Origin: Candidatus Magasanikiibacteriota bacterium
GTDB lineage: Bacteria > Patescibacteriota > Patescibacteriia > Magasanikbacterales > GWA2-37-8
DNA length: 64,000 nucleotides
Assembly: GCA_023246655.1 (NCBI GenBank)
Contig: JAHFHX010000003.1
Location: forward strand, 24,875-88,874
Reading direction: 5' to 3'
In this document: piece by piece, positions 1-28,758 of the stretch
How the letters are laid out: each line of letters begins with the position of its first letter
Position numbering within the stretch: the first letter of the stretch is position 1
Notes under the pieces: generated by a model
Database searches by the model: none
What the model was told of the DNA's origin: nothing
The model's input: the letters and a program-made list of their open reading frames with translations, nothing else
Made by a program: the position numbers and the translations under genes

Positions 1-1
1 C

Positions 2-1855
2 TCTACTGCCCTTAAAACGAGCGACCTCACCGAAGCGCGCAATGCTAATATCAAAGCTTTACATCATTTTACACTCGCCAGCGCTACGTTGGGTGCCAAA
101 CACCAGCTCCTTCAAGGAGTGCTCGGAAACCTCCCCGTCGTTGGAACTAATGTCAAAAGTGCCACGCAATTAGTACTCGCTGGTGAAGAACTTTCTTTAG
201 CCAATTCTTACCTACTTAAAGCCGCCGAGCAGGTTTCTGAGGCAACGACGACGCCGCTTGGTGCGCGCCTGGCAGCAATTCTTACCGGAGTTTCCACTGC
301 ACTCCCAAATTATCGGGAGGCTTTACAAAATCTGCGAGCCGTTGACCCCGAAATTTTACCAATAAAATATCAGGCACCCTTTGCTGGGTTTGTGGAAATT
401 TTTGGGCAAGTCCTCCACGACATGCAACGTGTAACCGATCTGGAACGGCCGCTGTTGGAAATGTTTGGTGGCACCGGCCGACGACGTTATCTATTGATAT
501 TTCAAAACCACCACGAATTACGTGCTACTGGTGGATTTATGGGTAGTTTTGCCGTGCTCGACATAAAAGACGGAAAAATTGAAAAACTCGAAATTCCACC
601 CGGGGGCACCTACGATGTCCAGGGTCAACTCAATGCCTATATCGAACCACCAACACCGCTTTTGCTCACGAATAAACGGTGGGAGTTTCAAGATGCCAAT
701 TGGTTCGCTGATTTTCCAACGACCGCTGAAAAAATTCTTTGGTTTTATCGCCACAGTCGCAACCTCACCGCCGATGGTGTCATTGCCATTAATGCAACGG
801 TCTTAGAACGCTTGCTTACTATTGTCGGGCCGATCACCGATTCCAATCGTAACCTTACCTTAACTGCCGCCACCGCACTGCCCGATCTTCAAGAAATTAT
901 TGAACGTGGCCCCGAAAAACAGGATCACCGACCAAAACAAGTGGTAGCTGATTTAGCACCACAATTTCTCAACATGATAACGGCTCTCCCCCCACGCGGA
1001 ATGATTCCACTGGCCACTGGGTTAGCCGAAGCCTTAGAACAGAAAGAGGTGCAGATCTATTTAACTGACGCCACAGCCCAGCAGGCGCTGGAACGTATGG
1101 GATGGGCCGGACGTCTCCTTCCGATTCATCCTCCAGAGGATTATCTACTGGTTGTCAACTCTAATATTCAAGGGGGTAAAAGTGATGCTGCCATTACCCA
1201 AAAAATAAGTCATCAAGCAGTGGTGGCGGAAGATGGCACCATTACCGACACGGTCACGGTAACCCGCGAACATCGTGGCCATAACGATGGCGGCCTCTAC
1301 GGACAAACCAATATTGATTACCTCAGAATCTATGTTCCTGAAGGCAGCACGTTTATAAGTGGAGCTGGATTCACCTGGCCATCAGAACAAGCCTTCCGCC
1401 CCCCAGAAGCCTGGTATTCCAAAGATACTCTGCTCCAGCAGGTTGAAAAAGAAATTGGTGTGGATCAAACGACCGGCACAAGAATTACTCATGAATTTGG
1501 TAAATATGTCTTTGGTAACTGGGTGATTACCGAACCAGGAACGGTTAGTCAAATCCAATTTACCTACCGGTTACCTTTTAAAGCCTTTACCCTCACCGGG
1601 CCACCGGGCGGAAATGATACGAATAATGAACAGAATGTATTGAATAGTTCCAAAACAATGAGTCGGTATCAATTAATTGTGCAACGACAATCCGGTGCCG
1701 TAACTACCTTCGAAAGTCAAATCATCTTTCCCGCCCCCTGGCACTCAATTTGGACTGATGGCCCCTCTCGCCAAACCGCCACTAATGGTCTGCGCATTGA
1801 GGAACATTCACTTAAAAAAGACACCGCTTGGAGTCTTCTCATGGAGAAAAAATGA
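2..1855 (+). CDS. large hypothetical protein, 5' partial; possibly a DUF4012-family envelope protein
   Basis: Long ORF. The frame is open from the window edge at position 2 through the track start at 89, which is a TTG. It ends at a TGA followed by TAA. The family assignment is a recollection and is not verified. Confidence 0.6.
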   Translation, partial: STALKTSDLTEARNANIKALHHFTLASATLGAKHQLLQGVLGNLPVVGTNVKSATQLVLAGEELSLANSYLLKAAEQVSEATTTPLGARLAAILTGVSTALPNYREALQNLRAVDPEILPIKYQAPFAGFVEIFGQVLHDMQRVTDLERPLLEMFGGTGRRRYLLIFQNHHELRATGGFMGSFAVLDIKDGKIEKLEIPPGGTYDVQGQLNAYIEPPTPLLLTNKRWEFQDANWFADFPTTAEKILWFYRHSRNLTADGVIAINATVLERLLTIVGPITDSNRNLTLTAATALPDLQEIIERGPEKQDHRPKQVVADLAPQFLNMITALPPRGMIPLATGLAEALEQKEVQIYLTDATAQQALERMGWAGRLLPIHPPEDYLLVVNSNIQGGKSDAAITQKISHQAVVAEDGTITDTVTVTREHRGHNDGGLYGQTNIDYLRIYVPEGSTFISGAGFTWPSEQAFRPPEAWYSKDTLLQQVEKEIGVDQTTGTRITHEFGKYVFGNWVITEPGTVSQIQFTYRLPFKAFTLTGPPGGNDTNNEQNVLNSSKTMSRYQLIVQRQSGAVTTFESQIIFPAPWHSIWTDGPSRQTATNGLRIEEHSLKKDTAWSLLMEKK

Positions 1856-1905
1856 TAAGCATATATTTTTTATGAGACTTGCATTGAAATTAATATGAGT
1901 TCATT

Positions 1906-3792
1906 ATGAATCCTATGATCGAGGAACGCCCCCACTTCTCCGAGCATGTCTTGGGAGAAAAAAAACCTAAAAAAATTACTCCCCGACAACGACGTCGCAT
2001 CAAAACTCCTGCGAACCAATTGGCAGTTGCTAACCCAAAAATTGATGAATGCCTCACGAGCATTTACCAGGATGAACGCGGGGCAATTCCCGATATGCGC
2101 ACCATTGCCGTTAAAAAAGAACACCGCATTGGTAACTTTTTTCTTCGTCTGATATGTATCAGTGTAGTCTGCTCCGCCCTCGGCTGGATACTTTGGTATT
2201 ATTGGCCTCAATTACTGCGCCACTCAGAAAACCAAGCAACCTTAACTATTGTGGGGCCAGATCACCCACCCATTGGGCAAAGCAGCACCTATACGTTAAG
2301 CTATGAAAATAGAGAAAAAATTGACTTACACGATGTGCTATTACAACTCCATCCTGCGGCTGGTTTTATAATTGACTATAGTTCTCTTACCGCAAATAAT
2401 GATAAAAAAACTGAATGGACCATTGGAATTCTTCCGGCCAAAGGTAGCGGCACGCTCACCATCACTGGCCGGCAATTTGGCACTCCTCATCAAGCTGCTT
2501 CATGGCGCGCCGCCCTCAAATATCAATCAGAAAAAATAACTTCCTTTCTTGAAGAAGAAACCTCACTGCCAATCACCCTCGGCCCCGCCCCGGTTACTCT
2601 CACCATCTCCGGCCCCGCCCAAAATACCCTAGGTTCAGCAGTTACCTACACCTTCCAAGTAGCTGCCAAGGGTGGGTGGCCGCGTGAACCACTGGAAATA
2701 GTCCCTGAGTTTCCGGTTAATTTTTCCCTCTCATCGAGCTCACCGGCTCTTACTAAAAATCACTGGATTATTCCTACCCCCTCGTCCACTACTCCTTTCA
2801 ACGTAGTCATTACCGGGCAATGGCACGACAGCACCACAACCGAACCCATTATCCGAGCGGGGCTCTTTTGGAGTGTGCCGAGTACAACAAAAAATTTCTT
2901 AGTAGAAAAGTCTGAATTTAAAAGTGAAGTAATTAAAAATGATATTAATCTATCAATTGCGATTAATGGAACCACCACTGATTTTGATAGCAAGCCAGGT
3001 GACCTGATTAATACTACTTTTCAACTCCAAAACAACAGTGGTCACGAAATTAAAAATGCCATCCTCGGACTGAGTTTTGAAGCTCCCGCCCTTAAACGCC
3101 AAAGTCTTCTTAACTGGCCGGAAATCACCAACCCCGCTGATGCTGATATTCAAGGTGAACAATTGAGCGATACGCGACGTCGCGGCACACTTACCTGGTC
3201 TTCCAAACATCTCCCTGCCTTAGCGCAACTACCTTCGGGGAAGGAGGCAAGCCTTGATATACGTTTACCAATTCGTGATAGTAAAAATTTCGCTCTTGAA
3301 TCGGTTCGTGATACAACTATTACTGTTCGGGGCACAGCTACCTTTAGTGACCAAACGGGAACTCACACTATTCTCAGTAACCCCATTACCATCACGGTTA
3401 ATTCCGATCTTACCTTTGAACAACGCTCGGCTGTTTCCGTCACTCCGGAAGGTAAAAAACGATTCGCGATAAGCTGGATACTAAACAACACCTTCCACGC
3501 GCTTAAAAATATTGATCTCTCGGCCACGCTCTACGGAGACATCAACTGGGAAGCAAACGGCGACGTTTCTTCAGGAGTTCTTACTTATGACGCTGCCGCA
3601 AAAAAGCTCACCTGGCATATTGCCGAATTGCCCACCACCGTGGATGTTGCCAGCGCCCCGTTTACGGTAAGTCTAAACAGCAACAACCCTACCCAGAGCT
3701 TACTCATCTCAAAAATTCGAATCCAGGCGGACGATACCGTCACAGGTAAAAAAATAGAACTTCTGGGGGACGAAGTTCCTTTGAATAAATAA
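1906..3792 (+). CDS. hypothetical membrane-anchored extracytoplasmic protein (628 aa)
   Basis: Basic N-terminus (KKPKKITPRQRRRIK), then one hydrophobic helix (FFLRLICISVVCSALGWILWYYW), then a long Thr/Ser-rich domain. Ends with TAA. Confidence 0.7.
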   Translation: MNPMIEERPHFSEHVLGEKKPKKITPRQRRRIKTPANQLAVANPKIDECLTSIYQDERGAIPDMRTIAVKKEHRIGNFFLRLICISVVCSALGWILWYYWPQLLRHSENQATLTIVGPDHPPIGQSSTYTLSYENREKIDLHDVLLQLHPAAGFIIDYSSLTANNDKKTEWTIGILPAKGSGTLTITGRQFGTPHQAASWRAALKYQSEKITSFLEEETSLPITLGPAPVTLTISGPAQNTLGSAVTYTFQVAAKGGWPREPLEIVPEFPVNFSLSSSSPALTKNHWIIPTPSSTTPFNVVITGQWHDSTTTEPIIRAGLFWSVPSTTKNFLVEKSEFKSEVIKNDINLSIAINGTTTDFDSKPGDLINTTFQLQNNSGHEIKNAILGLSFEAPALKRQSLLNWPEITNPADADIQGEQLSDTRRRGTLTWSSKHLPALAQLPSGKEASLDIRLPIRDSKNFALESVRDTTITVRGTATFSDQTGTHTILSNPITITVNSDLTFEQRSAVSVTPEGKKRFAISWILNNTFHALKNIDLSATLYGDINWEANGDVSSGVLTYDAAAKKLTWHIAELPTTVDVASAPFTVSLNSNNPTQSLLISKIRIQADDTVTGKKIELLGDEVPLNK

Positions 3793-3835
3793 TGAATAGC
3801 ACTAATTAATTCGTTTTCAACGAAGTCGCACTCAT

Positions 3836-3930
3836 TGTCATTCCGAGCGAGGCCTCGCGGCCGACGAGGAATCTCTGTCCAACCAACGATCGTGTGAGCC
3901 AGAGATCCCTCACAGCGGTTCGGGATGACA
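3836..3930. repeat. palindromic repeat element, family A, copy A (tgtcattccgag...cgggatgaca)
   Basis: Terminal inverted repeats. Near-identical to the reverse complement of the copy at 47217-47303 and alignable with the copy at 16419-16557. Confidence 0.85.
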
Positions 3931-3988
3931 AAGTATTATTTGAGGGGAGGTAAGAGAAATTAATTAGCACTATTCATAAAATAATAAA

Positions 3989-4933
3989 TCATTTTTCCTG
4001 CAAAAATTTCTCTATTAAACCAACGGCGGTTACAATATCATCTCCCTCAATCCAATTGATTCGCTTGTCCCGTTTAAACCAGGTTATTTGACGTTTGGCA
4101 TACTGCCGGGTGGCAACTTGTATGGCGCGCACTGCTTCTGCCTTGGTACATTCCCCGCGCACATAGCTCCCCATCTGCTGGTATCCAATACTACTCATAC
4201 TCGGAAGATCCCAACCATATTGTTCTTGCACTAATCGTTTTGTTTCCTCATCCAACCCTTGTGCTATTTGTTCCTCAACCCGGCGATTAATTCGCGCCAA
4301 GAGTTTTTCCCAAGGCCAATGAATACCAATTTGGAGTGTATTAAATAACGGTGCCCCTACTCGCCGCTGCTCTATAAAGGATTTCCCCGTTATCATAGCT
4401 ACTTCCAACGCCCGCAATACCCGTCGAGGATTATGGCGGTCAATTGCCTGGTAACTCTCTGGATCACAGTGCTGCAGCAATTGTTGCAATTCAGCTAACG
4501 ATTTCTGCTCCAAACTCGCCCGCAGCGCCTGGCTGGGAGCGACGGCCGGAATAATAAGATTATCTATAAGCGCCCACAGATACTGCCCCGTTCCTCCCAC
4601 CACAATCGGCAATTTTCCGCGCGCTTGAATAGCATAGAGGCACCCAACAGCTAGCTCCTTAAACTGGGCCACACTCATTTGCTCCTTTGGATCAATGATA
4701 TCCATAAGGTAATGCGGTATACCCTTAACTACATATACCTTACTGCCACCCACCAATTGCCACTCACCAAAAGGCTTAGCCGTTCCAATATTCATTTTTG
4801 TATACACCTGCCGCGAATCAGCCGATACCACTTCACCATTAAACCGCTGGGCAAGCTTAATGCCCAATTCAGTCTTTCCCGAGGCAGTAGGGCCAAGGAG
4901 AATGATAATTTTTGACTTTTTAAAATTTTCCAT
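3989..4933 (-). CDS. miaA: tRNA dimethylallyltransferase
   Basis: Begins IILLGPTASGKTELGIKLAQRFNGEVVSADSRQVY (P-loop plus the MiaA N-terminal signature). 314 aa, ends with TGA. Confidence 0.9.
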   Translation of the reverse strand: MENFKKSKIIILLGPTASGKTELGIKLAQRFNGEVVSADSRQVYTKMNIGTAKPFGEWQLVGGSKVYVVKGIPHYLMDIIDPKEQMSVAQFKELAVGCLYAIQARGKLPIVVGGTGQYLWALIDNLIIPAVAPSQALRASLEQKSLAELQQLLQHCDPESYQAIDRHNPRRVLRALEVAMITGKSFIEQRRVGAPLFNTLQIGIHWPWEKLLARINRRVEEQIAQGLDEETKRLVQEQYGWDLPSMSSIGYQQMGSYVRGECTKAEAVRAIQVATRQYAKRQITWFKRDKRINWIEGDDIVTAVGLIEKFLQEK

Positions 4934-5021
4934 AAAACTTATATACCAAAAACAAATCCTATTGTAGATACCCTCATGCTATCAGTCAACTCAACAACAA
5001 TGATAAAAATACTAGGGGGGA

Positions 5022-5050
5022 TTGACAAAAGGGTAAAAGTATGCTATACT
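5022..5050 (+). promoter_or_regulatory. sigma70-type promoter, TTGACA-17 bp-TATACT
   Basis: ttgaca at 5022-5027, a 17-nt spacer, then tatact at 5045-5050. Lies upstream of three small ORFs. Confidence 0.6.
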
Positions 5051-5068
5051 ATTAATATAATTTAGCTA

Positions 5069-5353
5069 ATGTTAGCTAAATTTGCTGTTGAGTATCTACC
5101 CTACAGCACGCGGTCCCTGCCGCACGTAAATATTAATTTTACTACTATGTCAAAAGAACAAACTATTTCCGATCCAAATAAAGGAATAAAAGAATTTATT
5201 TCAATTGAAGGCAGACCGATTCCTGGGGTTGATTTTGTTCCTGATGATTTGATAGATACGAATGCAATGGGTAATGAACTTGTTAAGGAGATTGAAGAAG
5301 AAGAGCGGGCTAAAGCTGCAAAGGAAGGGCAAGCACAAGACCATGCCGCCTAA
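5069..5353 (+). CDS. small acidic hypothetical protein; an alternative start at 5147 (MSKEQ) gives 68 aa
   Basis: ORF directly downstream of the canonical promoter. Glu/Asp-rich C-terminus. Confidence 0.5.
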   Translation: MLAKFAVEYLPYSTRSLPHVNINFTTMSKEQTISDPNKGIKEFISIEGRPIPGVDFVPDDLIDTNAMGNELVKEIEEEERAKAAKEGQAQDHAA

Positions 5354-5407
5354 AACTACCTCACCTCTTAAGGTAAATCTCTAACTTTAATCTTAAAAAA
5401 TAATTTT

Positions 5408-5746
5408 ATGCCAGAAGAACTACCACGGATTTATGATCTTCCCAATGCGGAAGAAGCTTCTTTCCAAGACATCTCTGAAACAATTACTTCGGTAGAAGAC
5501 CTAGAAACTCGTGTAGGAATTTCTAAAACTGAAGTAACACCAGAACTAGGTAATTTGCTTCAAGGACTGATCGTCCTAGCCAATAAACGAAATAAGCTTA
5601 CAGCTAAAGCGAAGGGTTCCCGAGAAGTAGCAAGCGAGTTCGTAGACAAACGGAATGCGGCTTTTGTCGAACTCAGTAAATTAGTGGGATACGAAAGAGC
5701 CGGCAAAATTGATAAGGCTCTTTTCTCCGCCAAACAGAAAGAATAA
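5408..5746 (+). CDS. small acidic hypothetical protein (112 aa)
   Basis: Same strand as, and tandem with, the neighbouring small ORFs. Confidence 0.5.
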   Translation: MPEELPRIYDLPNAEEASFQDISETITSVEDLETRVGISKTEVTPELGNLLQGLIVLANKRNKLTAKAKGSREVASEFVDKRNAAFVELSKLVGYERAGKIDKALFSAKQKE

Positions 5747-5781
5747 GTTAAATTTATTTATAATATAAAAACTCTTTCTAT

Positions 5782-6015
5782 ATGTCCTCCAAAGAATTTT
5801 CAGGAACTTTCCCACCACCAAAAGATCCGGTTGTTGACAATCTTTTCCGTCCTGGTCGGATTCGTGAAGAATGGGCAAAGGAAGCAGCAGACGAAGAGGC
5901 TGAGAGCGCGGCTGCAGCGGCAGCAATGGGAGAAAAACAAAAAAAACTTGCCGAAAGTGCAGGGAAAAAATCAATTCAACCTCCACTTGGTGAACTCCCT
6001 GGAATCAAAGTATAA
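5782..6015 (+). CDS. small hypothetical protein (77 aa) with an Ala/Glu-rich low-complexity region
   Basis: Third ORF of the tandem set. Contains AADEEAESAAAAAAMGEKQKK. Confidence 0.45.
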   Translation: MSSKEFSGTFPPPKDPVVDNLFRPGRIREEWAKEAADEEAESAAAAAAMGEKQKKLAESAGKKSIQPPLGELPGIKV

Positions 6016-6062
6016 CTCAATTAGCCCTTCCAACAGGGCTAATTTTAATTTTGTAATCGTTG

Positions 6063-7829
6063 TTACTTTCGAGTGGCGATTTCGGTACGTACTTTGGCAA
6101 TAAACTCCTCTTTTGTTATCTTCAACTGCTCCTCCTGCCCCCGCACCCGAATGGTCCAGTCTCCGCCGTCGAGTTCTCTATCCCCTATTACTACAATATA
6201 GGGGATTTTTTGTTTAGCAGCGTTCCTCACTTTTTTGCCAATGGACTCATCAGCATCATCCACCGCCACCCGAATTCCAGCGGCCTCAAATTGTTTGGCA
6301 AGGGTGTGAGTTTGGGCAGCGTGTTTCTCGGAGACTGCCGCGAGCAGAACGTGAACCGGAGATAACCATACCGGAAGGTTGCCGGCTGTGTGTTCAATCA
6401 AAACGCCCATAAATCGTTCTACGGAACCAAGCACCGCCACATGAATCATAACCGGGCGTTCATCTACCCCTGCTGCATTCGTAAAATTCAATTTAAAACG
6501 CTCGGGTTGGTTCATATCAAGCTGAATAGTAGCGAGCTGCCATTCCCGACCAAGGGAATCCACACCCATAAAATCAAGCTTAGGACCATAAAAAGCGGCT
6601 TCGCCCACGCCCACGGAATAATCTTGGCCAGCCTGTTTTACAATATCAGCCAAATTCTGCTCGGCCTCATTCCACATTTCTGGCGTCCCTAAATATTTTT
6701 GCATATTGGCAGGGTCGTGCGTGGATAAACGCACTCTCAATTCCATCCCAATAGTTTTATACAATGTTGTAATAATCTCGTAAGCAACTCCAACCTCTTG
6801 TTTAATCTGATCACGCCGACAAAACACATGGGAATCGTCTTGGGTAATGGAACGCACGCGCGTCAACCCCTGGAGCTGGCCTGTGTTTTCGTCACGATAA
6901 ATGGTGGTGGTTTCAAAATATCTAACCGGCATCTCCCGATAACTCCGGCCGCGCGCAGCAAATAACTGAATATGATGTGGGCAATTCATGGGTTTAAGCA
7001 CAAATTGCGTCTCGGTCTTTTTGCTTTTTACATGAAATAGGTCGTCTTCAAATTTATCCCAATGACCAGACGTTTTATATAAATCATTCTTGGCAATATG
7101 TGGTATCCATACCCGCTCAAATTTTTTCGCCAAACGAAGTTCAGCAATAAAATTTTCAAGTTCACGCCGCACCATGGTACCCTTGGGGGTAAAGAGTGGG
7201 AGCCCGGAACCAACGAGCTCAGAAAATACAAATAAATCTAATTCCGCTCCAATCTTACGATGGTCCCGCTTCTTAGCTTCCTCCAGCATATGCAAGTAAT
7301 CCTTAAGTTCTTGCTGAGAGGGGAAACAGGTCCCGTAAATTCGGGTGAGCATTTTATTTTTTTCATTCCCTCGCCAATAGGCGCCCGCAACGGAAAGAAG
7401 CTTAAAATGTTTAATTTCGTCTTTCGGGTGTGCTAAATGACCACCTTTGCACAAATCGAGAAATGATCCCTGTTTGGTCTCGGTAATCGTTTTCCCCTGC
7501 ACCGCGAATTCATCAATCAGCTCTAGCTTGTAAGGATTCCATGAAAAATCTTTTTTGGCTTGCTCTACCGGAACCTCTTGAATAGTAAAATTATCCCACG
7601 TTTTTAAAATTTCGCGCATTTTGTTTTCTATTCTTTCAAAATCGGCTTCAGAAATTTTTACGTCCCCCATGTCAAAATCCTGATAAAAACCACTTTCGAT
7701 GGAGGGGCCAATAGCGTTTTGTGCATTGGGCCAGATGCTTCTAACCGCAGCAGCAAGAAGATGCGCGCAGGAATGACGTAAGTTATCGAGATATTGTTGA
7801 TCCATATAGAAATAATTAACAATTATCAA
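6063..7829 (-). CDS. thrS: threonine--tRNA ligase, lacking the N-terminal TGS domain
   Basis: HSCAHLLAAA editing-domain motif, RDHRKIGAELDLF, class II synthetase core and a C-terminal anticodon-binding domain. 588 aa. Confidence 0.9.
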   Translation of the reverse strand: MIIVNYFYMDQQYLDNLRHSCAHLLAAAVRSIWPNAQNAIGPSIESGFYQDFDMGDVKISEADFERIENKMREILKTWDNFTIQEVPVEQAKKDFSWNPYKLELIDEFAVQGKTITETKQGSFLDLCKGGHLAHPKDEIKHFKLLSVAGAYWRGNEKNKMLTRIYGTCFPSQQELKDYLHMLEEAKKRDHRKIGAELDLFVFSELVGSGLPLFTPKGTMVRRELENFIAELRLAKKFERVWIPHIAKNDLYKTSGHWDKFEDDLFHVKSKKTETQFVLKPMNCPHHIQLFAARGRSYREMPVRYFETTTIYRDENTGQLQGLTRVRSITQDDSHVFCRRDQIKQEVGVAYEIITTLYKTIGMELRVRLSTHDPANMQKYLGTPEMWNEAEQNLADIVKQAGQDYSVGVGEAAFYGPKLDFMGVDSLGREWQLATIQLDMNQPERFKLNFTNAAGVDERPVMIHVAVLGSVERFMGVLIEHTAGNLPVWLSPVHVLLAAVSEKHAAQTHTLAKQFEAAGIRVAVDDADESIGKKVRNAAKQKIPYIVVIGDRELDGGDWTIRVRGQEEQLKITKEEFIAKVRTEIATRK

Positions 7830-7979
7830 ATAACAATTAACAAGTGTGGCTTGCTCGTTGTTATTTGTTCATTGTTAATTTATTTAAAAAAATACCCCGA
7901 CACCGCAAAATCTGCGATATCGGGGTCTGTGATAAAATCACGGACGGTTCCACCCGACGTTTCACTTTTTTTCACCAAT

Positions 7980-8010
7980 TGTCATCCCGAGCGGAGAACC
8001 GAGGGATGAC
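7980..8010. repeat. short hairpin copy of family A (gtcatcccgagcggagaaccgagggatgac)
   Basis: Termini match the family A terminal inverted repeats. Confidence 0.6.
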
Positions 8011-8148
8011 ACAATTGAGATATTATAGATACTCTGAGAGTGGTACCATATCGGTCCCGACTAGGTCGGGATAAACTGGGCTGGTTCTCATACTAACGTA
8101 TCTTAACAATACTGTACTCAATCGCTTCAAGTCTGTCAAGATCGTCGA

Positions 8149-8188
8149 GACTTTACGAACTTTACAGACTTTATGGACTTTACAAACT
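8149..8188. repeat. phased GACTTTAYR tandem repeat block
   Basis: Sequence gactttacgaactttacagactttatggactttacaaact, periodicity ~9-10 bp. Confidence 0.8.
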
Positions 8189-8306
8189 CTCACTCCACAT
8201 TCTTCACTACTACTTTAATCCGATCCGGTACAGTTGGTGCCGAAAACATCCAAGAGGGAGTAAAAATAATTTCGGCCGAAGCAACGTGATCGAGCCCCAA
8301 GATATA

Positions 8307-9335
8307 TCATTCAATTTCATCTTTTCTCTTTCCCACAAAATGTTGGGGCGAGAGTGTCTCCACGTTGGCATCAAGTGTCACGAGCAGATTGTGCTCTACA
8401 GTAAGTTCCGCTGTACCAGTTTTGGCATCATATGAAGCTAATGCAATATGTGGTTCGGCATCGCTTGAGACTACCTTTTCGATGGTTGGATCAATTTTAT
8501 CTGTTATTGTTCGATCTAACAACTGGGTCAGCTGTTCAGCATCATAGGTCACCGCTATTATGGTACTGGTACCATTTAAAACAAATTCACTTACCTCTTC
8601 ACCTATCTGATGGTTTGAAACAACATTCTGGTTACTCAAAGCCATAATCAGATGCTTACCGGGAACAGTTGAAGGAAGTGTCTTGGCAAAAGCGGCTTGA
8701 GCCTTTTGTGCATAGATTTGCTGTGCGGCCTTAAGATCGGAATCACTCAGAACGCCAATGGTGGCTACCCCCCCCCGCATGGGTTCCGTACTTTGCGCGT
8801 ATACCTGTTTCTGACGATCGGGTGATAAACCAGGAATAGTAAATTGAGTTGGGTCAATATCCGAAGTGCTCCCTGGTTGATCGGCATACACTGGTACCGT
8901 TACTTGCCCATTGGCAGGCACTATTGCCCGCTCCGCCAAACGAAATAGTATTCCTTGGGCAGTGAGGAGACGCGTTGTGGCGACTAATGTTTGTGAACTG
9001 TTGCTTTTATTATAAATTACAGCTGTGCCCTTGGCGACACCAGTGGTTGTCTTATTGCCCGTTGGCTGAAAATGTTCTGACCAGGTAAATACAGTTGAAC
9101 TCGCCAAACCCGTAATGGTATCTTTCCCGTCCGGCTGTTTGGCAACCTTCGCTACCAAGCTCACAATTCGTTGATCAGCTTTCGCTACCACCGTAATGGT
9201 GGCTTTTTTTGACGTCATAAAAACGACCACCGCAAATAATACCACCGTCAACACCAAAAAAGAAAGCGCGATTATTTTATACAAGCGAACGGGTGGCTCT
9301 GGTGGTGGTTTGGTTGACATGCGATAGGTGATCAT
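8307..9335 (-). CDS. hypothetical membrane-anchored protein (one N-terminal TM helix, Thr-rich)
   Basis: N-terminal hydrophobic segment LYKIIALSFLVLTVVLFAVVVFM. Lies next to the pilus ATPase. Confidence 0.6.
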   Translation of the reverse strand: MITYRMSTKPPPEPPVRLYKIIALSFLVLTVVLFAVVVFMTSKKATITVVAKADQRIVSLVAKVAKQPDGKDTITGLASSTVFTWSEHFQPTGNKTTTGVAKGTAVIYNKSNSSQTLVATTRLLTAQGILFRLAERAIVPANGQVTVPVYADQPGSTSDIDPTQFTIPGLSPDRQKQVYAQSTEPMRGGVATIGVLSDSDLKAAQQIYAQKAQAAFAKTLPSTVPGKHLIMALSNQNVVSNHQIGEEVSEFVLNGTSTIIAVTYDAEQLTQLLDRTITDKIDPTIEKVVSSDAEPHIALASYDAKTGTAELTVEHNLLVTLDANVETLSPQHFVGKRKDEIE

Positions 9336-9376
9336 ACAAAAGTATGGACTAAAAATGTATGGATATAGTATAGCAT

Positions 9377-9432
9377 AAAAAAAAATTCGTGTAACGTGGA
9401 ACGCGTAACCCCTCTAAGGGAGGCGTTACACG
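9377..9432 (-). terminator. rho-independent terminator for the pilB-like gene
   Basis: Perfect 9-bp inverted repeat cgtgtaacg / cgttacacg (9388-9396 and 9424-9432), followed on the minus strand by a run of 9 T. Begins 15 nt after the stop codon. Confidence 0.6.
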
Positions 9433-9447
9433 TTGTGCGTTATGCGC

Positions 9448-11163
9448 TTATTCCGCCACTCGAAATATTTCCTCCACGGTTGTAATCTTATCAAGAGCCT
9501 TAAGGAGCCCATCCTGTGCCATCGTTACCATCCCGTCCTTTACGGCTAATTCCTGAATGATATATTCCGAAACGTTGCTACTTAAAATAACCTGTTCAAT
9601 CTCTTTGGTCATAATAAAAATTTCATAAATACTTATTCGCCCTTTGTACCCAAGACCGCTACATACCGAGCACCCAGCACCGCGATAAAAATGTAAATCA
9701 TTAAAATTAAGTTTGGTTTTCTCTTCCGTTGGTAGAGCCTGTAAAATATTCACAACGCGCTCTAATTGTTCCGTTGGCAACACGGCTTCTTCGCGGCACG
9801 CCTCACAAATGCGACGCACCAACCGCTGACCAATAACGGAATTTAACGCCGGTGCAAGCAAAAATGATTTAACTCCCATCGACAAAAACCGCGGAATGGC
9901 ACCGGCCGCACTATTGGTATGAATAGTGGACAACATTAAATGCCCAGTAAGCGCCGCCTGAATAGAAATTTCGGCGGTCTCTAAATCACGAATTTCACCC
10001 ACCATACAAATATCAGGGTCTTGGCGCAGAATACTTCTCAAACCCTTAGCAAACGTATAATCATGGCTTGCATCTACCTGGCTCTGGTTCACCCCCTCCA
10101 TCTTAATTTCAATGGGATCTTCTAAGGTGATAATTTTTACCCCGGGCTTGTTAAGAAGACGAAGAATAGCATACATGGTGGTGGTTTTTCCAGACCCAGT
10201 AGGACCAGTAGTAATAATCATACCATTGGGTCGCTCAATCTCGCGGCGCAGGCGCTCATATGCCATCCCGCGAAGACCCAAATCATCAAAGGTCACAACA
10301 TGACTACCGCTATACAAAATTCTCATCACCACACTTTCTCCGTGAATCGTCGGCATAGTAGAAACACGGACGTCAATACTACTTGATGTTAGTTTTAAGG
10401 TGACCCGTCCATCCTGAGGACGGTCGGTAACATTAATTTTAAGAGCGGCCACTAGCTTAATTCGAGAAATAAATCGTTTCCACTGTTCCTTAGGAAGACG
10501 CGCCACTTCATGAAGGACACCGTCAATACGATATCGCATCACAATCCCGCCTTCTTCCGCCTCCACATGAATATCGGTGGCATTTATTTTAAGTGCTGCA
10601 GCAATCATGAGCGTTAAGATATCACTCATGGTTACGGATTGAAACGCCTCTTCCAAACTTTTTAAATTATCAATGCCGCCTTCGTAACGAGCCAATTCTT
10701 CATCAGTAATAATTACATCCTTACTCACGGATTTGACAATGGGCAAATTAGCATACAATGCTAACACCCGCTCTAAGCTGTGCTCGGAAATAAAGTACAG
10801 TTGCGTTTGGGCATGGTGGCGTTCACCCAGTTGATACACCAGCTCCTCGACTTCCGGACGCGGCTCAACAGTACCAAGCCGCATCTCTTCCGGCGTAAAA
10901 TAAAAACAGATCGTTCCATTTTCGCGAGCGATCTCCTCAGGAATAACTTTCAGCGCTTCCGAGGAAACGGGGAAAGTTGCCAGATCAATGTACGGAAGCT
11001 GAGAGCGGGCCGCTTGCGCGGCTGCGAGCTGCTCTTTCTCCTGAGTGGTAATCTGCTCCATCTTATGAGAAAATTTGGCCTGGACACCACTTGGTCCACC
11101 GCTCACCGGTTTCGCTGACGCTCCGCTGCCAGCCAAATCTTTTATCGAAGGAAAATCGGACAT
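9448..11163 (-). CDS. pilB: type IV pilus assembly / type II secretion ATPase (GspE/PilB family)
   Basis: Walker A motif TGPTGSGKTTT, a GspE_N-like N-terminal domain and a C-terminal tetracysteine-like CSVCSGLGYKGR. 571 aa. Confidence 0.85.
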   Translation of the reverse strand: MSDFPSIKDLAGSGASAKPVSGGPSGVQAKFSHKMEQITTQEKEQLAAAQAARSQLPYIDLATFPVSSEALKVIPEEIARENGTICFYFTPEEMRLGTVEPRPEVEELVYQLGERHHAQTQLYFISEHSLERVLALYANLPIVKSVSKDVIITDEELARYEGGIDNLKSLEEAFQSVTMSDILTLMIAAALKINATDIHVEAEEGGIVMRYRIDGVLHEVARLPKEQWKRFISRIKLVAALKINVTDRPQDGRVTLKLTSSSIDVRVSTMPTIHGESVVMRILYSGSHVVTFDDLGLRGMAYERLRREIERPNGMIITTGPTGSGKTTTMYAILRLLNKPGVKIITLEDPIEIKMEGVNQSQVDASHDYTFAKGLRSILRQDPDICMVGEIRDLETAEISIQAALTGHLMLSTIHTNSAAGAIPRFLSMGVKSFLLAPALNSVIGQRLVRRICEACREEAVLPTEQLERVVNILQALPTEEKTKLNFNDLHFYRGAGCSVCSGLGYKGRISIYEIFIMTKEIEQVILSSNVSEYIIQELAVKDGMVTMAQDGLLKALDKITTVEEIFRVAE

Positions 11164-11280
11164 ATGAATTTATTCTCGCGTGAATTTCTTTCGCAAGAAA
11201 TTCATCCCGACTTAGTCGGGAAAGATTCCTTTAAAATATGCTGCAATGAATTGAAAATTATAAAATTGTTTATAGGCAAA

Positions 11281-12234
11281 CTACTGCATTCGAAACAATT
11301 TCCTTGTATGATGAATGATCCTACTCCCGATGCCTTCATGATGCATCTTCATAAATAAATATATCCAAGCACTGGTAGTAAAGGCGTTAAAAATCGCGCC
11401 GACCAAAGCCGCTACAGCAATGAGTAGAAAAAAATATAAAACCACCGCCACCGTAACAAACGACATTTGTCCGGTAAATCCAGCAGTAAGAGCGAGCAAG
11501 GAAGATGGAATAAGCGCAATAACCGAGCCAGCTGATAATGCCAGTACAATAACAAAATTTAAAATTATCAACACAATGCTCAGTTCCAAGGAAACCAAAA
11601 AATGATGATCAAATAACTGCCATGCCTGCGCCACGGCGGTTGGTATACTCCGGCGCTCCGCAATAACATAACCAAGGGCATAAATAGCCATCACAGTTAC
11701 CGTGAGAGCCAAAAGTAAACTGACTGCTACCAAACTAATAGTCAGTAAAAGCCCGCCCCACGTAGCAAGAGACACTGTGCGAAGTGTCATAAGTGTTATC
11801 ATAATAAGCACGGCTAAGAGCGCCTTCTCCAAAATATTAATTCCACATATTTCCCAAAAATGTTCCACGCCGCGCTGCCAGGCACTACGCAACGGCAAAA
11901 TAGTATGCACCTTATACCAATGAATCGCCGTAGCAATAAGTGCTCCCTCCGCACAAAGTGCCACAACAATAATAAACACAATGCCGCTTAAAATAATGCA
12001 CGTCAGCCAAATAAACCAAATAAATTCATTCAAACTGCTAATGGTAATTGTCCCCCACGATGCTGGCCACCACGGTTCCGGCGCAAAGGCGCTGTCAAGC
12101 AGATAGCCAATAAAATTCGCCAGGCCAAATTGACCCACAAACACGGCCAAAAGCCCCAGTGCCCACGTACTGCGGTGATGCCATACGAGCGTCCAAGCCC
12201 GCGTGAGCGCCCGCGTATAAGTTGGTTCATGCAT
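11281..12234 (-). CDS. hypothetical polytopic membrane protein
   Basis: At least 6 hydrophobic helices. Ends with TAG. Confidence 0.6.
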   Translation of the reverse strand: MHEPTYTRALTRAWTLVWHHRSTWALGLLAVFVGQFGLANFIGYLLDSAFAPEPWWPASWGTITISSLNEFIWFIWLTCIILSGIVFIIVVALCAEGALIATAIHWYKVHTILPLRSAWQRGVEHFWEICGINILEKALLAVLIMITLMTLRTVSLATWGGLLLTISLVAVSLLLALTVTVMAIYALGYVIAERRSIPTAVAQAWQLFDHHFLVSLELSIVLIILNFVIVLALSAGSVIALIPSSLLALTAGFTGQMSFVTVAVVLYFFLLIAVAALVGAIFNAFTTSAWIYLFMKMHHEGIGSRIIHHTRKLFRMQ

Positions 12235-12242
12235 ATTTTAAA

Positions 12243-12277
12243 GACTTTATGGACTTTATAAACTTTTGACTTTAAAC
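12243..12277. repeat. phased GACTTTAYR tandem repeat block
   Basis: Sequence gactttatggactttataaacttttgactttaaact, within 10 nt upstream of the start codon at 12234. Confidence 0.8.
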
Positions 12278-12374
12278 TATTACATAGTATACCACAAAAG
12301 CGAGGCTAATAGAAATCATTATAACAAAATAGCCCCGGACGGGGCTATTGTTTTTACCACAATTGCTGGAATAT

Positions 12375-14234
12375 TTAGACGCCATCTATCACCATCTTCT
12401 GAGGAGCAGGGCCCAGGAGAGCAATAATTTCATCTTGTTCAATCGTTTCTTTCTCCAAGAGCGCCTTTACGAGTATCTCGAGCTTCTCCCGATGTGTGTC
12501 AATCGTCTTTTTAGCTACCGCTTGCGCCTCTTCAATAAGGCGTTTCATTTCCTTATCAATTTCTTCGGCGGTTTTATCACTGTAATCGCGCTCTTCATGA
12601 ATCTCCCGACCTAAAAAGACTAGCTCCTCATGCTCGCCAAAGGTGCGAGGACCGAGCACAGTACTCATGCCATAACGGGTTACCATATCGCGAGCCAATC
12701 GCGTAGCGTTTTTCAAATCATTGGACGGACCAGTGGAAACCTGATTATCACCAAAAATTATTTTTTCCACCACATAACCACCAAGGGCCATTGCCAAATC
12801 ATCGGTAAACTGCGCTAAAGTGTGATAATGCTTGTCTTCGCTCGGCATTTTAAGAGTATAACCACCGGCTTGACCACGAGAAATAATAGAAACCTTGCGT
12901 ACTGGATCACAATTGGGCAGCATATACCCCACAATCGCATGGCCAGCTTCATGATACGCAGTCATCTTTTTGTCACGCTCAGTCATCACGCGACTTTTAC
13001 GCTCTGGCCCCAAAAGCACTTTCTCGATACTCTCTAAAACTTCACGCTCACCAACTTCGGTGCGTCCACGCCGAACAGCCAAAATGGCCGCTTCATTCAT
13101 AAGGTTGGCTAAATCGGCTCCAGAAAATCCGGGAGTACGCTCGGCAATCTTGCGAATATTTACCTCGGAAGCTAGCTTTTTGCCCTGGGCATGAATTGCC
13201 AAAATTTCCTCACGATCTTTAATATCTGGCATATCAATGACGACACGCCGATCAAACCGCCCGGGACGCAGTAACGCCGGATCGAGCACATCCGGACGAT
13301 TAGTAGCCGCCATAACAATCACACCAAGATTAGCCTCAAAGCCGTCCATCTCAACCAGAATTTGGTTAAGGGTTTGTTCGCGTTCATCGTGCCCACCACC
13401 AAGACCAGCCCCCCGCCGACGCCCCACCGCATCAATTTCATCTACAAAAACAATCGCCGGTGCTGCTTTCTTGGCTTTGGCGAATAAATCACGAACCCGT
13501 GAAGCCCCAACCCCAACAAACATCTCAACAAATTCTGAACCGCTCATGTGAAAAAAAGGAACATTAGCTTCACCAGCAACCGCCTTGGCTAAAAGGGTTT
13601 TGCCGGTCCCGGGCGACCCCATCAATAACACCCCTTTCGGGATCTTTGCCCCCATCTCCACAAATTTCTTTTGATCACGAAGAAAATCAACAACTTCTAC
13701 CAACTCTTCTTTAGCTTCTTTCGCCCCCGCCACATCGGCAAAGGTCTTGCGATCTTTATCTTCTGGTTTTACTTGACGCGGATTGCTCTGCCCAAAGCCC
13801 ATTGCTCGATTATTCATTCCTTGCACGCCGCGACTCATGAAATAGAAAAAAGCCATGATGATAATGAGGGGCAAAATTGCTGGAAGCAAATTAAATGCCC
13901 ACAGCTTCCAAGAACTTTCTTCTTGAACTTCTACGTTGAGCTGTTTACGCGCTTCATCGCTGACACCATAATTTTTTATAATGTCACCAAACGATTCTTG
14001 TGGTTCTTTCTTCACTTCCTGGCTTTTCGCCGCCTCTTCTTTCAGCTCAATCTTTAAAGTATCGCCTTGAACAATTATATTTTTTACCTGACCAGCATTT
14101 ATCTCCTCAACCATGCGGCCAACACCAATAACTTCTGGTTTAGCGCCTCCATGGCCCTTCACCAGACCCAAGGCCCCTGCAACCAAAAATAATACCAAGA
14201 AAATAATTAAAAAATTTTTAATAAAATGTCGCAT
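12375..14234 (-). CDS. ftsH: ATP-dependent zinc metalloprotease FtsH
   Basis: AAA Walker [24 protein letters not shown], and the zinc site HEAGHAIVG. Confidence 0.95.
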
Positions 14235-14281
14235 AATAATTTAGAGAGATCCTTAATTTCGTATCACTATCCTTTTATCCT

Positions 14282-15469
14282 TTAACCAGCGACCTCTTTT
14301 GTTTCTTCATTCTTACTTTCGTTCTTTTCTTCTACTTGAGCTGCCGCCATTGCTTTCGCCTCGCTCTTAGCTACTCCACGCGCCCGCTTACCTTTAACTC
14401 CAGCGAGCTTTAATCCCAAGCGATGTTCGGCGGGTTCGAGCGATACTATTTCAAACTCCAATTCTTGACCAAGCTTAAACTTGTCACCAATATTCCCCAT
14501 GGGTTCATCCGACAATTCAGAAATATGTGCCAGCCCATGAATTTCCTTATCCAACCCTATCATGAGCCCAAACGGTTCAATCTTTAATATTTTTCCTGTG
14601 GCTTTCTCCCCTATCTTATAACGCTCTTTCACCGTCTTCCACGGATCTTCCATCGTCCGCTTAATCGACAGATAAATTTTCGAATGGTCAAGTTGGATAA
14701 TCTGAGCTTTGACTTTTTGACCAATCTTAAGCATATCTTTAGGATGATCAATACGTTGCCAAGCAATCTCGGAAATATGAATCAACCCTTCAAGACCTTC
14801 TCCAAACCGCACAAAAGCTCCAAACGCGGTGAGGGCGCTTATTTCCCCTTCCACCACATCTCCTACTTTATACGATTCCAGGACTGCCTTTTGCGAGTCC
14901 TCCCAAACCGCGCGTTCAGAAACAATCAATTTCTCCTCCGCTTCATTTACGTCAATGACTTTTACTTCGAGTTCCTGACCAACTAATTCACGCAGTTTTT
15001 CAAGAATTCTATTTTTATCACCACCAGCCACCCGTGGATAATGATCGGGGGAGAGCTGTGAAACCGGCATGAATGCTGCTAACGCCTCTACCTGTACCAT
15101 AATGCCGCCCTTATTGGCCCCTAATACCCGGCCTTTGAGGGTTAAACCATCTTTCAGCCACTGCTTCATGTTGTTCCAAGCACGTTGATACCCAGCCGTA
15201 CGGAATGAAAGTTCCATTTCGCCGTTTTCGTTTTCAAATTCTAAAACGGTCGCCTCCACCTCCGCTCCTACCTTTAGATTATTATACTCTCGAGATTCAG
15301 AAAATAACTCAGTACCACGCACCACGCCGGTCGTGAGTCCTTCAATATCAATATGTACAACGTGGCGATCTACCGCAATGACTTTGCCTTTTACTACGTC
15401 TCCTACCTTTGGAATCGCCAGCCCTTGGGCCTGAAATAGTACTTTAAAATCTTGCTCTTTATCTGACAT
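14282..15469 (-). CDS. rpsA: 30S ribosomal protein S1
   Basis: Four tandem S1 domains with a VGDVVKGKV-type start, and an acidic C-terminal tail. Confidence 0.85.
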   Translation of the reverse strand: MSDKEQDFKVLFQAQGLAIPKVGDVVKGKVIAVDRHVVHIDIEGLTTGVVRGTELFSESREYNNLKVGAEVEATVLEFENENGEMELSFRTAGYQRAWNNMKQWLKDGLTLKGRVLGANKGGIMVQVEALAAFMPVSQLSPDHYPRVAGGDKNRILEKLRELVGQELEVKVIDVNEAEEKLIVSERAVWEDSQKAVLESYKVGDVVEGEISALTAFGAFVRFGEGLEGLIHISEIAWQRIDHPKDMLKIGQKVKAQIIQLDHSKIYLSIKRTMEDPWKTVKERYKIGEKATGKILKIEPFGLMIGLDKEIHGLAHISELSDEPMGNIGDKFKLGQELEFEIVSLEPAEHRLGLKLAGVKGKRARGVAKSEAKAMAAAQVEEKNESKNEETKEVAG

Positions 15470-15623
15470 ACTAAAATAAAAAAAGAAACCTTTAACCTGT
15501 CTCGACTCAGTCGAGATTAAGTGCCCTCCTCTTAAAGCGGAAGGGCTTATAACGATATGTTAGTAACGGCCATACTATACACTACACTAAGGTAAACTGT
15601 CAATACCCACATCTGCGTGAATC

Positions 15624-15652
15624 TTGCCATCCTACAGAAATTATGCTAAAAT
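15624..15652 (+). promoter_or_regulatory. candidate promoter, TTGCCA-17 bp-TAAAAT
   Basis: ttgcca at 15624-15629, a 17-nt spacer, then taaaat at 15647-15652. Confidence 0.35.
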
Positions 15653-15664
15653 AATTCTACTTTT

Positions 15665-15684
15665 AAAGTCTTTATAGACTTTGG
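15665..15684. repeat. phased repeat block (aaagtctttatagactttgg)
   Basis: Same motif family. Lies between the divergent rpsA gene and the gene starting at 15696. Confidence 0.6.
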
Positions 15685-15695
15685 ATTTTTATCAT

Positions 15696-16310
15696 ATGCA
15701 TATCTCCTGGCTCGGCGGCACTTGTGTTAAACTGCAAACTAAATATCAAGAAGAAGATGTTGTTGTTCTCATTGATGCTTACCGACCGACTAAGGGTGAT
15801 TTTCCGCGCAGTTTTTCTCCCACCATTGCGCTCTTCTCCACCGGAGAGGAGGATGCCGCTACCCTATCGCAAAATCCCTTTGTGCTCTCCACGTTAGGCG
15901 AAGTCGAACTCAAAGAAGTTATGATCACCACCTGGCCCGCCGCCGCGGGGACAATTGTTTTTAAAATTAACGCTGAAGGAATTTCGATAGTACACTTAGG
16001 CGTTCTTAACAAAAAACTCACGGCGGATGAAATAGAAAAAATGGGGTCGGTTGATATTTTATTCGTACCGGTTGGCGACGTTGGACGGTATTTGAACGCG
16101 GAAGACGCCGCAGCGTTGGTGACCGCACTTGAGCCACGAGTGGTTGTCCCAATTGCCTACCAATGTGACACAGACCCCACTGCCAAACCTGTAACGGAAT
16201 TTATTAAAGAGTTGGGCCTAAAACCAGATAGTACCGATAAAAAAATAATTCTTAAGAAAAAAGATTTACCACAAGAAGAGACAAAGTTGATGATATTAGA
16301 AAAATCTTAA
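15696..16310 (+). CDS. MBL-fold-like protein (Lactamase_B_3 / YtkL-like), apparently lacking the HxHxDH motif
   Basis: N-terminus MHISWLGGTCVKLQT...VVLIDAY resembles UPF0173 metal-dependent hydrolases. No His-rich motif is visible. The track start at 15681 is a TTG. Confidence 0.35.
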   Translation: MHISWLGGTCVKLQTKYQEEDVVVLIDAYRPTKGDFPRSFSPTIALFSTGEEDAATLSQNPFVLSTLGEVELKEVMITTWPAAAGTIVFKINAEGISIVHLGVLNKKLTADEIEKMGSVDILFVPVGDVGRYLNAEDAAALVTALEPRVVVPIAYQCDTDPTAKPVTEFIKELGLKPDSTDKKIILKKKDLPQEETKLMILEKS

Positions 16311-28747: not shown

Positions 28748-28758
28748 TACTAATCACT

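Follow-up and report, generated by a model that had tools for sequence, protein, structure and literature searches.

Palindromic repeats in a Candidatus Magasanikbacteria genome: probable members of a widespread class of tagged DNA hairpin modules

Introduction

The DNA analyzed here, a stretch of 64,000 nt of contig JAHFHX010000003.1 from a Candidatus Magasanikbacteria genome and referred to as the window, harbors a dispersed family of palindromic repeats, family A. This family is probably the local population of one widespread DNA hairpin module from the superfamily of CGTC/TGTC-tagged repetitive extragenic palindromes (REPs), which would be the same as the Ssn-related motifs (SRM). Its repeating unit is a hairpin module of 24-70 nt, a half-element, and not an element of 90-140 bp. 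The class itself has already been described; the additions made here are a host from the Patescibacteria, a variant with G.A pairs and a GNA loop, and in-frame sites that are recurrently occupied.

CGTC-tagged REPs were characterized by Di Nocera 2013 (PMC3733652) as units with an unpaired CGTC or TGTC (or CCTC) tag, a stem starting with AT and a short tail. They were grouped into the families CGTC-1 to CGTC-4, and members include dRS3 of Neisseria and RPE-4 and RPE-6 of Rickettsia. Inverted dimers with spacers of 20-100 bp predominate and are located between unidirectional or convergent open reading frames (ORFs), with some units being intragenic. No associated transposase was found, and CGTC-type units flanked neither a gene for a REP-associated tyrosine transposase (RAYT) nor an IS200 gene.

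An enzyme acting on such repeats was described by Chenal 2025 (Nat Commun, PMC11893778). SsnA is a single-domain GIY-YIG protein of ~94 aa (cd10448), which binds the oriented dRS3, termed NTS (CGTCATTCCCGCGMAVGCGGGAATCYRG), as single-stranded DNA (ssDNA) only and not as RNA, and cleaves a few nucleotides upstream of it. The three bases before the palindrome (GTC in the NTS consensus) are needed for cutting, and the C after the palindrome is the most critical base for binding. The ssn genes are typically bracketed by repeats (SRM). NTS and Ssn restrict transformation in N. meningitidis, and mobility was put forward as a hypothesis only. Nuclease activity was demonstrated experimentally for the Neisseria and Wolbachia homologues only (PMC11893778).

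Results

Anatomy of the hairpin module

The original prediction for this DNA had reported at least nine dispersed copies, here numbered E1 to E9 by position. All nine are present, and a solo module at 60152-60184 was added as a tenth locus. The string GTCATYSCGAG, with at most one mismatch, occurs at 16 sites in the window compared with 2.7 +/- 1.6 after shuffling, and none of 100 shuffles reached 16; chance palindromes were rejected on account of this excess. Seven loci are inverted dimers with their tags facing outward (E1, E3, E5-E9), one is the solo module, and E2 and E4 are short variants. Having a GC content of 46-63% in a window of 45% GC, the copies stand out as GC-rich islands. Counted as modules, the window holds 17, or about 0.27 per kb. 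A relaxed module detector gave 40 matches in the window versus 29 in shuffled sequence, which was too noisy, and revealed no credible extra copy.

Each module consists, in this order, of an unpaired YGTC tag, a 5-nt arm starting with AT, the dinucleotide GA, a variable core, a second GA, the complementary 5-nt arm, and a tail led by C. The core forms an upper stem of 2-3 bp closed by a GNA or GNNA loop, or this is replaced by a longer insert, which can reach about 60 nt. CTC forms the tail, and copies of the E1, E3 and E9 type as well as the solo unit have it lengthened to CTCTGTCC. Partners within a dimer are often non-identical modules, separated by a spacer of 0-100 nt.

The stem arms covary strongly. 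In a search with a pattern permitting 16 stem combinations, 140 of 145 matches had complementary arms, compared with about one third expected from the arm frequencies. Among 175 modules not chosen by an exact pattern, the modal interior was GA-GC-GNA-GC-GA, and the G of the 3' GA was present in 135 although the detector demanded only the A. The upper stem covaries in this sample as well (GC/GC, GT/AC, AC/GT, CC/GG, GGC/GCC), and the loops are GAA, GTA, GCA or GNNA. In 532 unique modules, for which the GTC of the tag was imposed by the detector, the first tag base (position -1), which was not imposed, was T in 80% and C in 15%. The base right after the palindrome, likewise left free, was C in 98%, the tail composition being C 98%, T 75%, C 54%. 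The 5' arm opens with AT in almost all modules and with AC in a few. In the window, the C after the palindrome is present in all modules except E2 and E4, the latter consisting of termini only.

These sequence patterns suggest a fold in which a 5-bp stem would be topped by two sheared G.A pairs and a GC-clamped GNA triloop. The heptamer d(GCGAAGC) is a classic, very stable DNA mini-hairpin.

When a module on the plus strand is followed by a neighbor on the minus strand, the two are spaced by 0-100 nt in 73 of 83 pairs. The spacers are unrelated in sequence and length, and those of 150-500 nt contain no convincing ORF and none of transposase size. A direct repeat of at least 2 nt, as expected from target-site duplication, was found at 5% of 100 dimers versus 5.2% with shuffled partners. 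The full-length copies of 90-140 bp claimed in the original prediction thus hold in their extents and in the outward shape of terminal inverted repeats, but not as units: they are inverted dimers of two self-folding hairpin modules.

Distribution of the module

The search beyond this genome that the original prediction had proposed for other Patescibacteria led considerably further. The exact 25-nt minimal form GTCATYCYGAGCGNAGCGARGRATC was found in at least 120 stretches of the genome collection, with a chance expectation well below one. The matches listed include Acidobacteriota, Chloroflexota, Nitrospirota, Planctomycetota, Gemmatimonadota, Bacteroidota, Firmicutes, several Proteobacteria, Verrucomicrobiota and Omnitrophota, as well as three classes of Patescibacteria and one metagenome-assembled genome of Nanoarchaeota. 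The module is therefore not lineage-specific and occurs, among the matches listed, in nearly every bacterial phylum. In addition, a search for one subtype with a variable gap detected 22 stretches of viral contigs, mostly of high GC content and with solo units as well as dimers.

Tag, AT-first stem, dimers, intragenic units and placement relative to genes all agree with the published descriptions of the class. In the window, Rfam reported three tRNAs only at the gathering threshold and nothing on the elements even at E<=5, and a literature search with the raw sequences GTCATTCCGAG and GTCATTGCGAG returned unrelated primer matches only.

Association with genes for small GIY-YIG nucleases

A regular expression for small GIY-YIG genes, applied to loci selected for their modules, found only two; each was bracketed by modules, and the number is too low for a judgment. 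In the reverse test, 80 metagenomic loci were chosen solely because they encode relatives of two ~95-aa GIY-YIG proteins. Within 0-100 nt of the GIY-YIG gene, the module density was 6.0/kb upstream and 5.8/kb downstream, at 100-200 nt it was 4.2/kb and 3.3/kb, respectively, and beyond 400 nt it was 0.05-0.2/kb on both sides. This corresponds to a 30- to 100-fold peak within 200 nt of the 80 genes. In 33 of 62 loci, the gene has modules on either side, usually in the order module(+)-ORF-module(-), which is the layout of the dimer with a gene in place of the spacer. The association with the nuclease gene was in this way re-derived independently of Chenal 2025.

The ~95-aa GIY-YIG proteins match PF01541. 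In the protein of locus L129, Tyr6, Tyr17 and Glu66 are located at, or at most two residues from, the SsnA residues mutated in Chenal 2025 (Y6, Y17, E64). The family comprises more than 7,900 members at E<=1e-10, Patescibacteria included, and in Patescibacteria the GIY-YIG genes likewise have modules alongside. A relative's copy of an operon of the window (contig P0028, ENA ERZ1305449) has, at 3385-3684, a 99-aa GIY-YIG gene that separates the ATP-grasp gene from the SucD-like one; in the window, the latter two share a 4-nt overlap.

An ssn-like GIY-YIG gene with modules was also observed at 2502-4951 of L231/L232, on a 1.06-Mb contig of a Parcubacteria genome, between genes for bAvd and a reverse transcriptase. 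This locus looks like a diversity-generating retroelement.

Individual copies and their genomic context

As predicted, the copies are located between genes, at gene ends, or within genes. According to the ORF map, two loci lie between convergent genes (E1, E4), six between genes of the same strand (E2, E3, E6, E7, E9 and the solo unit, the last two overlapping a stop codon) and two in frame inside genes (E5, E8), whereas none of the ten is found between divergent genes.

Three copies are inverted heterodimers of modules with ATTCC and ATCCC stems. E1 (3836-3930) is placed between convergent gene ends with stops at 3792 and 3989 and combines a plus-strand module with an ATTCC stem and a long apical insert (3837-3872) with a minus-strand module with an ATCCC stem (3905-3929). 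E3 (16419-16557), between two plus-strand genes, consists of a plus-strand ATCCC module with a 57-nt apical insert bearing hairpins of its own (16420-16489) and a minus-strand ATTCC module (16523-16556). In E9 (47217-47304), which overlaps the 3' end of the CofD-like gene 47290-48276 (-), an ATCCC module (47218-47240, +) is followed by an ATTCC module (47268-47303, -). The claim that these three can be aligned beyond their termini was confirmed, as was the near identity of E9 to the reverse complement of E1: a 47-nt arm is common to E1 and reverse-complemented E9 at 98%, and identity is 85.7% over 98 nt. E3 aligns with both through the four conserved blocks TTGTCATYCCGAG, GGAATCTCTGTCC, CAGAGATYCCTC and TCGGRATGACAA, with apical inserts between the blocks.

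The two further subtypes, with ATTGC and ATTCY stems, proved to be as described. E7 (36307-36428) is an inverted dimer of ATTGC modules at 36308-36351 (+) and 36391-36427 (-) and fills the spacer between genes for an S-adenosylmethionine-dependent methyltransferase and a pseudouridine synthase. E8 (44525-44616), with ATTGC modules at 44526-44558 (+) and 44585-44615 (-), is located in frame within the SucD-like gene 43833-44801 (-). Of the ATTCY copies, E5 (30561-30697) is an inverted dimer in frame within the EndoQ-like gene 29507-30898 (-), with modules at 30561-30609 (+) and 30634-30695 (-), the tag of the latter being decayed to TATC. E6 (30910-31005), an inverted dimer, takes up the entire 115-nt spacer of two minus-strand genes and is built from a module with a CGTC tag and an ATTCT stem (30911-30934, +) and one with a single stem mismatch (30980-31004, -).

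From the short hairpin versions of the original prediction, E2 (7980-8010, between two minus-strand genes) stands as a solo module, TGTC-ATCCC-GA-GCGGAGAACC-GA-GGGAT-GAC, with an aberrant tail: a G instead of the C makes it a perfect 31-nt palindrome. At E4 (19965-20012, between convergent gene ends), only the termini TGTCATCC...GGATGACA belong to the family, and the interior consists of two unrelated small AT-rich hairpins. The added solo module reads TGTC-ATCCT-GA-GCAGAGC-GA-AGGAT-CTCTGTCC and is located at the 3' end of the GlpX-like gene 60174-61160 (-).

Each copy had been expected to fold into a long hairpin. Folding as ssDNA is strong in five copies, namely E2 (z -4.8), E4 (z -5.5), E6 (z -5.0), E7 (z -6.0) and E8 (z -7.6), and modest in the heterodimers E1, E3, E5 and E9 (z -1.9 to -2.5). 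In E1, E3 and E9, the modest fold of the whole element results from the pairing of an ATTCC-stem module with an ATCCC-stem module.

Further observations concern the surroundings of the copies. E1 and E3 are each nested by ~25-30 nt within an outer AT-rich inverted repeat GCTAATTAATT ... AATTAATTAGC, located at 3781-3811/3958-3988 for E1 and 16380-16390/~16585-16597 for E3. Since the right flank of E1 is 73% complementary to the left flank of E3, a larger composite unit may exist; the AT-rich 11-mer GCTAATTAATT is not over-represented in the window (4 sites versus 2.9 expected). The outward terminus ATGACA of E2 was scored as a -35-like element in a weak promoter-like site at 8006-8033 (9 of 12 matches), and every element end bears a TTGACA-like hexamer.

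In-frame residence and recurrent occupancy

Several copies contribute to protein sequences. E9 provides the last four codons and the stop of the CofD-like gene (CHSE*), and the GlpX-like gene owes its C-terminal LSS* to the solo module. Residues 62-93 of the SucD-like protein (VIASDEGAKQS...PRNDN) are encoded by E8, and a solved homologue aligns to residues 1-62 and 96-319, bypassing this insert. Most of 120 SucD-like homologues have 296 aa with the loop QFPDVN, and in about 30 the loop is occupied by an insert or by what remains of one. These inserts fall into several subtypes with covarying ends (VIAS...PRNDN, VILSE...AQNDK, VIP...). Similarly, E5 encodes residues 68-113 of the EndoQ-like protein, a segment that is skipped in the alignment with the solved EndoQ structure (PDB). 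The EndoQ loop has a length of 26-27 aa in most homologues and contains module-derived peptides (LSSRP...LGMT, in another frame) in about ten, as judged by eye; in other homologues, a proline-rich palindrome family is found instead. Protein-level selection on the inserts was rejected because SucD and EndoQ do not read them in the same frame and their central parts are free to vary.

The SucD-like gene is part of an operon at ~42000-46042, whose products are an ATP-grasp/citrate-binding protein, a CoA-ligase subunit similar to SucD and a short protein of the citrate-synthase family. This gene set is of the citryl-CoA synthetase/lyase or ATP-citrate-lyase type and is kept in the Patescibacteria loci L023, L025, L026 and L233.

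Between the window and L023, the SucD-like genes are 72% identical, with 43% identity at third codon positions, and the synonymous sites are saturated. Within the insert, identity at third positions is 96.6%, or 90% if a 6-nt indel is counted, and the substitutions sit at unpaired positions, one being the middle base of a GNA loop and the other the dimer's apical loop. Compared with L025, the modules of the insert are kept and the spacer is replaced. In a neighbor-joining tree with the insert masked, insert-bearing genes are scattered among insert-free ones, and the window and L023 are not sisters. Furthermore, an unrelated heterodimer in L233 begins after the same SucD-like codon. At the 3' end of CofD, the window has a dimer and L023 a solo module with a different stem, and the site is empty in L025 and L026; the E7 junction is empty in L025.

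The conservation at SucD may reflect repeated insertion at one site, conversion by copies elsewhere in the genome, or selection at the nucleotide level. Selection for permissive loops explains some of the recurrence, but not the identical left junction. Two ENA contigs of the same population, L147 and L148, match the window at 99.99% identity and have the same elements, so they offered no empty sites. The sole difference between the window and L147 over 13.3 kb is a G/A change at 44542, in the first base of the GAA triloop inside E8; this single case changes Ser to Leu in the insert-encoded peptide.

A second palindromic family was observed in frame at 45526-45597 in the ATP-grasp (citryl-CoA synthetase-like) gene 44798-46042 (-). 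It comprises two inverted units TGTC-CCCTCCTT-GCGA-AAGGAGGG with an 8-bp GC-rich stem and a GNRA loop. It is located at about aa 148-172, the same protein position as a family-A dimer in L023 (9216-9287), and proline-rich peptides of this type also occur in the EndoQ loop of other homologues.

Other repeats in the window

A separate dispersed AT-rich family is composed of GACTTTA(C/T)(A/G) units (8141-8203, 12235-12279, 26078-26122, 28657-28923, 36955-36987 and 63207-63252). It is densest near two tRNA genes at 28759-29060, with 98% identity between the 40-nt copies at 28657 and 28840. At 54451-54565, upstream of an ORF starting at 54613, two 28-nt arms form the perfect inverted repeat TATAATATAGCCAAAATTATTATATTTT around a 59-nt spacer. 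Two related intergenic AT-rich palindromes, AATTAACAAT...ATTGTTAATT, with arms of about 31-34 nt, are present at 7810-7881 and 25722-25854, and short arrays with an 8-nt period of CTATTTCT-like sequence at 22063-22102 and 41997-42052.

Discussion

Proposed origin of the copies

The module and its nuclease partner can be combined into a working model. Whenever the DNA becomes single-stranded, as in replication, repair or DNA uptake, the tagged strand would fold. An Ssn-family GIY-YIG nuclease, a single-domain protein of ~95 aa, would then bind the folded strand and cut it a few nucleotides upstream of the tag. The module-ssn-module arrangement corresponds to a short dimer that carries a gene, so the short dimers have most likely derived from it as non-autonomous forms. 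They would spread into gene ends and permissive protein loops and be tolerated there. An Ssn homologue of this genome would act on the copies in the window, and its activity would drive their spread.

Several points weigh against this reading. The published SRM string HGTCWYN(0-2)YYVSBRHN(0-5)WNVSBRGN(0-2)RNCYNB has no site on either strand of the window (0.2 in shuffles), and the 64-kb window contains no ssn-like gene. Ssn enzymes have been shown to cut only, and no joining or transposition activity is known for them (PMC11893778), so mobilization by Ssn is a hypothesis in the literature, too. The enrichment beside ssn genes could mean that the repeats regulate or target the gene and not that the gene spreads the repeats. 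The tandem G.A pairs and a fold at the DNA level are deduced from sequence patterns and from the published substrate preference of Ssn. E4, which has the termini alone in common with the other copies, is the least secure member among the ten loci. Finally, the units appear to differ from CGTC-tagged REPs as described in Di Nocera 2013: an uninterrupted stem of 8-9 bp there versus 5 bp, G.A/A.G and 2-3 bp here, loops of 4-5 nt versus 3-4 nt in minimal forms and inserts reaching about 60 nt in others, and a CCA tail versus CTC. If both G.A pairs are counted, the stem of the module has nine positions.

With regard to the SRM string, it accepts the canonical NTS and rejects the minimal module, the left module of E1 and the ATTGC module of the E8 type (form of L023). 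Surveys based on this motif therefore undercount the family and miss Patescibacteria entirely; the form they overlook, with tandem G.A pairs and a GNA loop, may be the most widespread one.

Alternative explanations

The modules could serve the host as RNA elements in termination, 3'-end stabilization or RNase processing and be kept by selection. All ten loci are in positions that would be transcribed, several abut stop codons, and the SucD insert, far better conserved than the surrounding synonymous sites, could reflect selection on structure. Yet a role as terminators, which the original prediction had suggested, is not supported, given the lack of a T-run and of any terminator call at the four copies in 1-20000, where the scan found a canonical terminator separately at 7894-7926. 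Copies within ORFs also occupy different reading frames, relatives have empty sites, and there was no Rfam match at the elements. GNA triloops and tandem G.A pairs are typical of stable DNA mini-hairpins, which likewise counts against RNA, as does the binding of ssDNA instead of RNA by the published Ssn enzymes (PMC11893778). In sum, we regard a host function at the RNA level as quite unlikely.

A further alternative is the restriction of incoming DNA. Here, modules and Ssn would cut ssDNA taken up in natural transformation and so limit the replacement of the flanked genes, as was shown experimentally in N. meningitidis (PMC11893778). The conservation of the orthologous SucD insert at the nucleotide level fits such a role. 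The window also encodes a T2SSE-type ATPase, according to the Pfam annotation of the identical locus L148. Type IV pili are driven by ATPases of this type, and Patescibacteria presumably take up DNA. However, restriction leaves the arrival of copies at new sites unexplained, and many relatives have no copies at the same junctions. Such tagging is a tentative possibility, on balance unlikely as the explanation of the family, and it is compatible with the spread of Ssn-related modules proposed above, as a host-level role.

Two classical modes of transposition were also considered. If the modules were REPs and the dimers REP doublets forming hairpins (REPINs), they would be copied as ssDNA hairpins by a single-copy RAYT, an IS200/IS605-like tyrosine HUH transposase. 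This would account for the unpaired tag, the imperfect hairpin, the spaced inverted dimers, the solo remnants, the location at gene ends and the lack of target-site duplication. However, the tag is YGTC and not GTAG, so the units are not REPs of the RAYT type, and the gene flanked by modules encodes a GIY-YIG nuclease (no systematic scan for Y1 transposases or RAYT genes was made). CGTC-type units did not flank RAYT or IS200 genes in Di Nocera 2013 (PMC3733652) either, and we take this explanation to be very improbable. The original prediction had called the family similar to transposable elements of the miniature inverted-repeat type (MITEs), i.e. internally deleted insertion sequences with terminal inverted repeats that are moved in trans by a DDE transposase. 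Units of 90-140 bp with terminal inverted repeats of 11-15 nt at many sites have this outward shape, but the resemblance ends there. Each terminal repeat is a self-contained hairpin that is also found alone, the spacers share neither sequence nor length and carry no gene of transposase size even where they are long, and the associated gene is of the GIY-YIG and not the DDE type. Together with target-site duplications at random level, which make a DDE-type MITE unlikely, this leaves hardly any room for a classical MITE.

Significance

A more far-reaching form of the proposed Ssn-based spread would be a homing-like process, initiated by Ssn cuts in ssDNA, in which dimers enter specific sites by insertion or by copying through conversion. 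This is speculative and rather unlikely. It would explain why unrelated subtypes start at the same SucD-like codon in lineages that are not sisters, why inserts are ~97% identical beside 43% identity at synonymous sites, and why the EndoQ-like loop is occupied recurrently. If it were true, Ssn and its hairpins would constitute a new class of prokaryotic mobile elements, driven by a GIY-YIG enzyme, based on ssDNA, and writing peptide insertions into proteins across bacteria. The in-frame dimers in metabolic and repair enzymes at re-occupied loops represent a natural data set on the movement of CGTC-type repeats.

The repeats also affect genome annotation. ORFs are extended by them, stop codons and N-terminal extensions come from repeat sequence, and strings like VILSEAKDL and LRFAQDDK appear in the encoded peptides. 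Repeat-derived peptides inflate the similarity of unrelated proteins, and the top matches of the SucD-like protein were ranked partly by their inserts.

Comparison with known systems

The REPIN/RAYT system (Bertels and Rainey 2011) resembles family A on paper, with inverted hairpin doublets, remnants in the form of solo units, and repeats on either side of a small nuclease gene present in single copy. It differs in having a GTAG tag and an HUH tyrosine transposase, where family A has a YGTC tag and a GIY-YIG nuclease. In its outward behavior, family A is also similar to RPE-1, which is said to have been reported by Ogata et al. 2000/2002 as a palindromic repeat located in frame in functional protein genes at tolerated sites. 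By description, RPE-1 is reportedly longer (~100-150 bp) and restricted to Rickettsia. The label RPE-like in the original prediction came close, given the features of CGTC/TGTC-tagged REPs, the class of RPE-4 and RPE-6 (PMC3733652), and the two in-frame copies.

With the CGTC-tagged REPs, the window modules share the unpaired CGTC or TGTC tag, the first stem pairs A-T and T-A, and the short unpaired tail. Inverted dimers predominate in both, heterodimers are common, ends supply stop codons, and intragenic units are in frame. The placement between unidirectional or convergent genes agrees as well, two of the ten loci here being intragenic. The range is different, with five phyla in Di Nocera 2013 and, among the matches listed, nearly all phyla here, and no enzyme was linked to the class there, in contrast to the gene for a GIY-YIG nuclease here.

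In comparison to SRM/NTS, an 8-bp perfect stem there is opposed to tandem G.A pairs with a GNA loop, or to long inserts, here. NTS are rarely intragenic (2%), whereas two of ten loci are in frame in genes in the window, and the host of the window belongs to the Patescibacteria, which are unmentioned in Chenal 2025. The likeness covers the YGTC tag, the palindrome starting with AT and the C straight after it, the hundreds of dispersed copies over a wide range of phyla, and the repeats on both sides of a gene for a GIY-YIG protein of ~94 aa.

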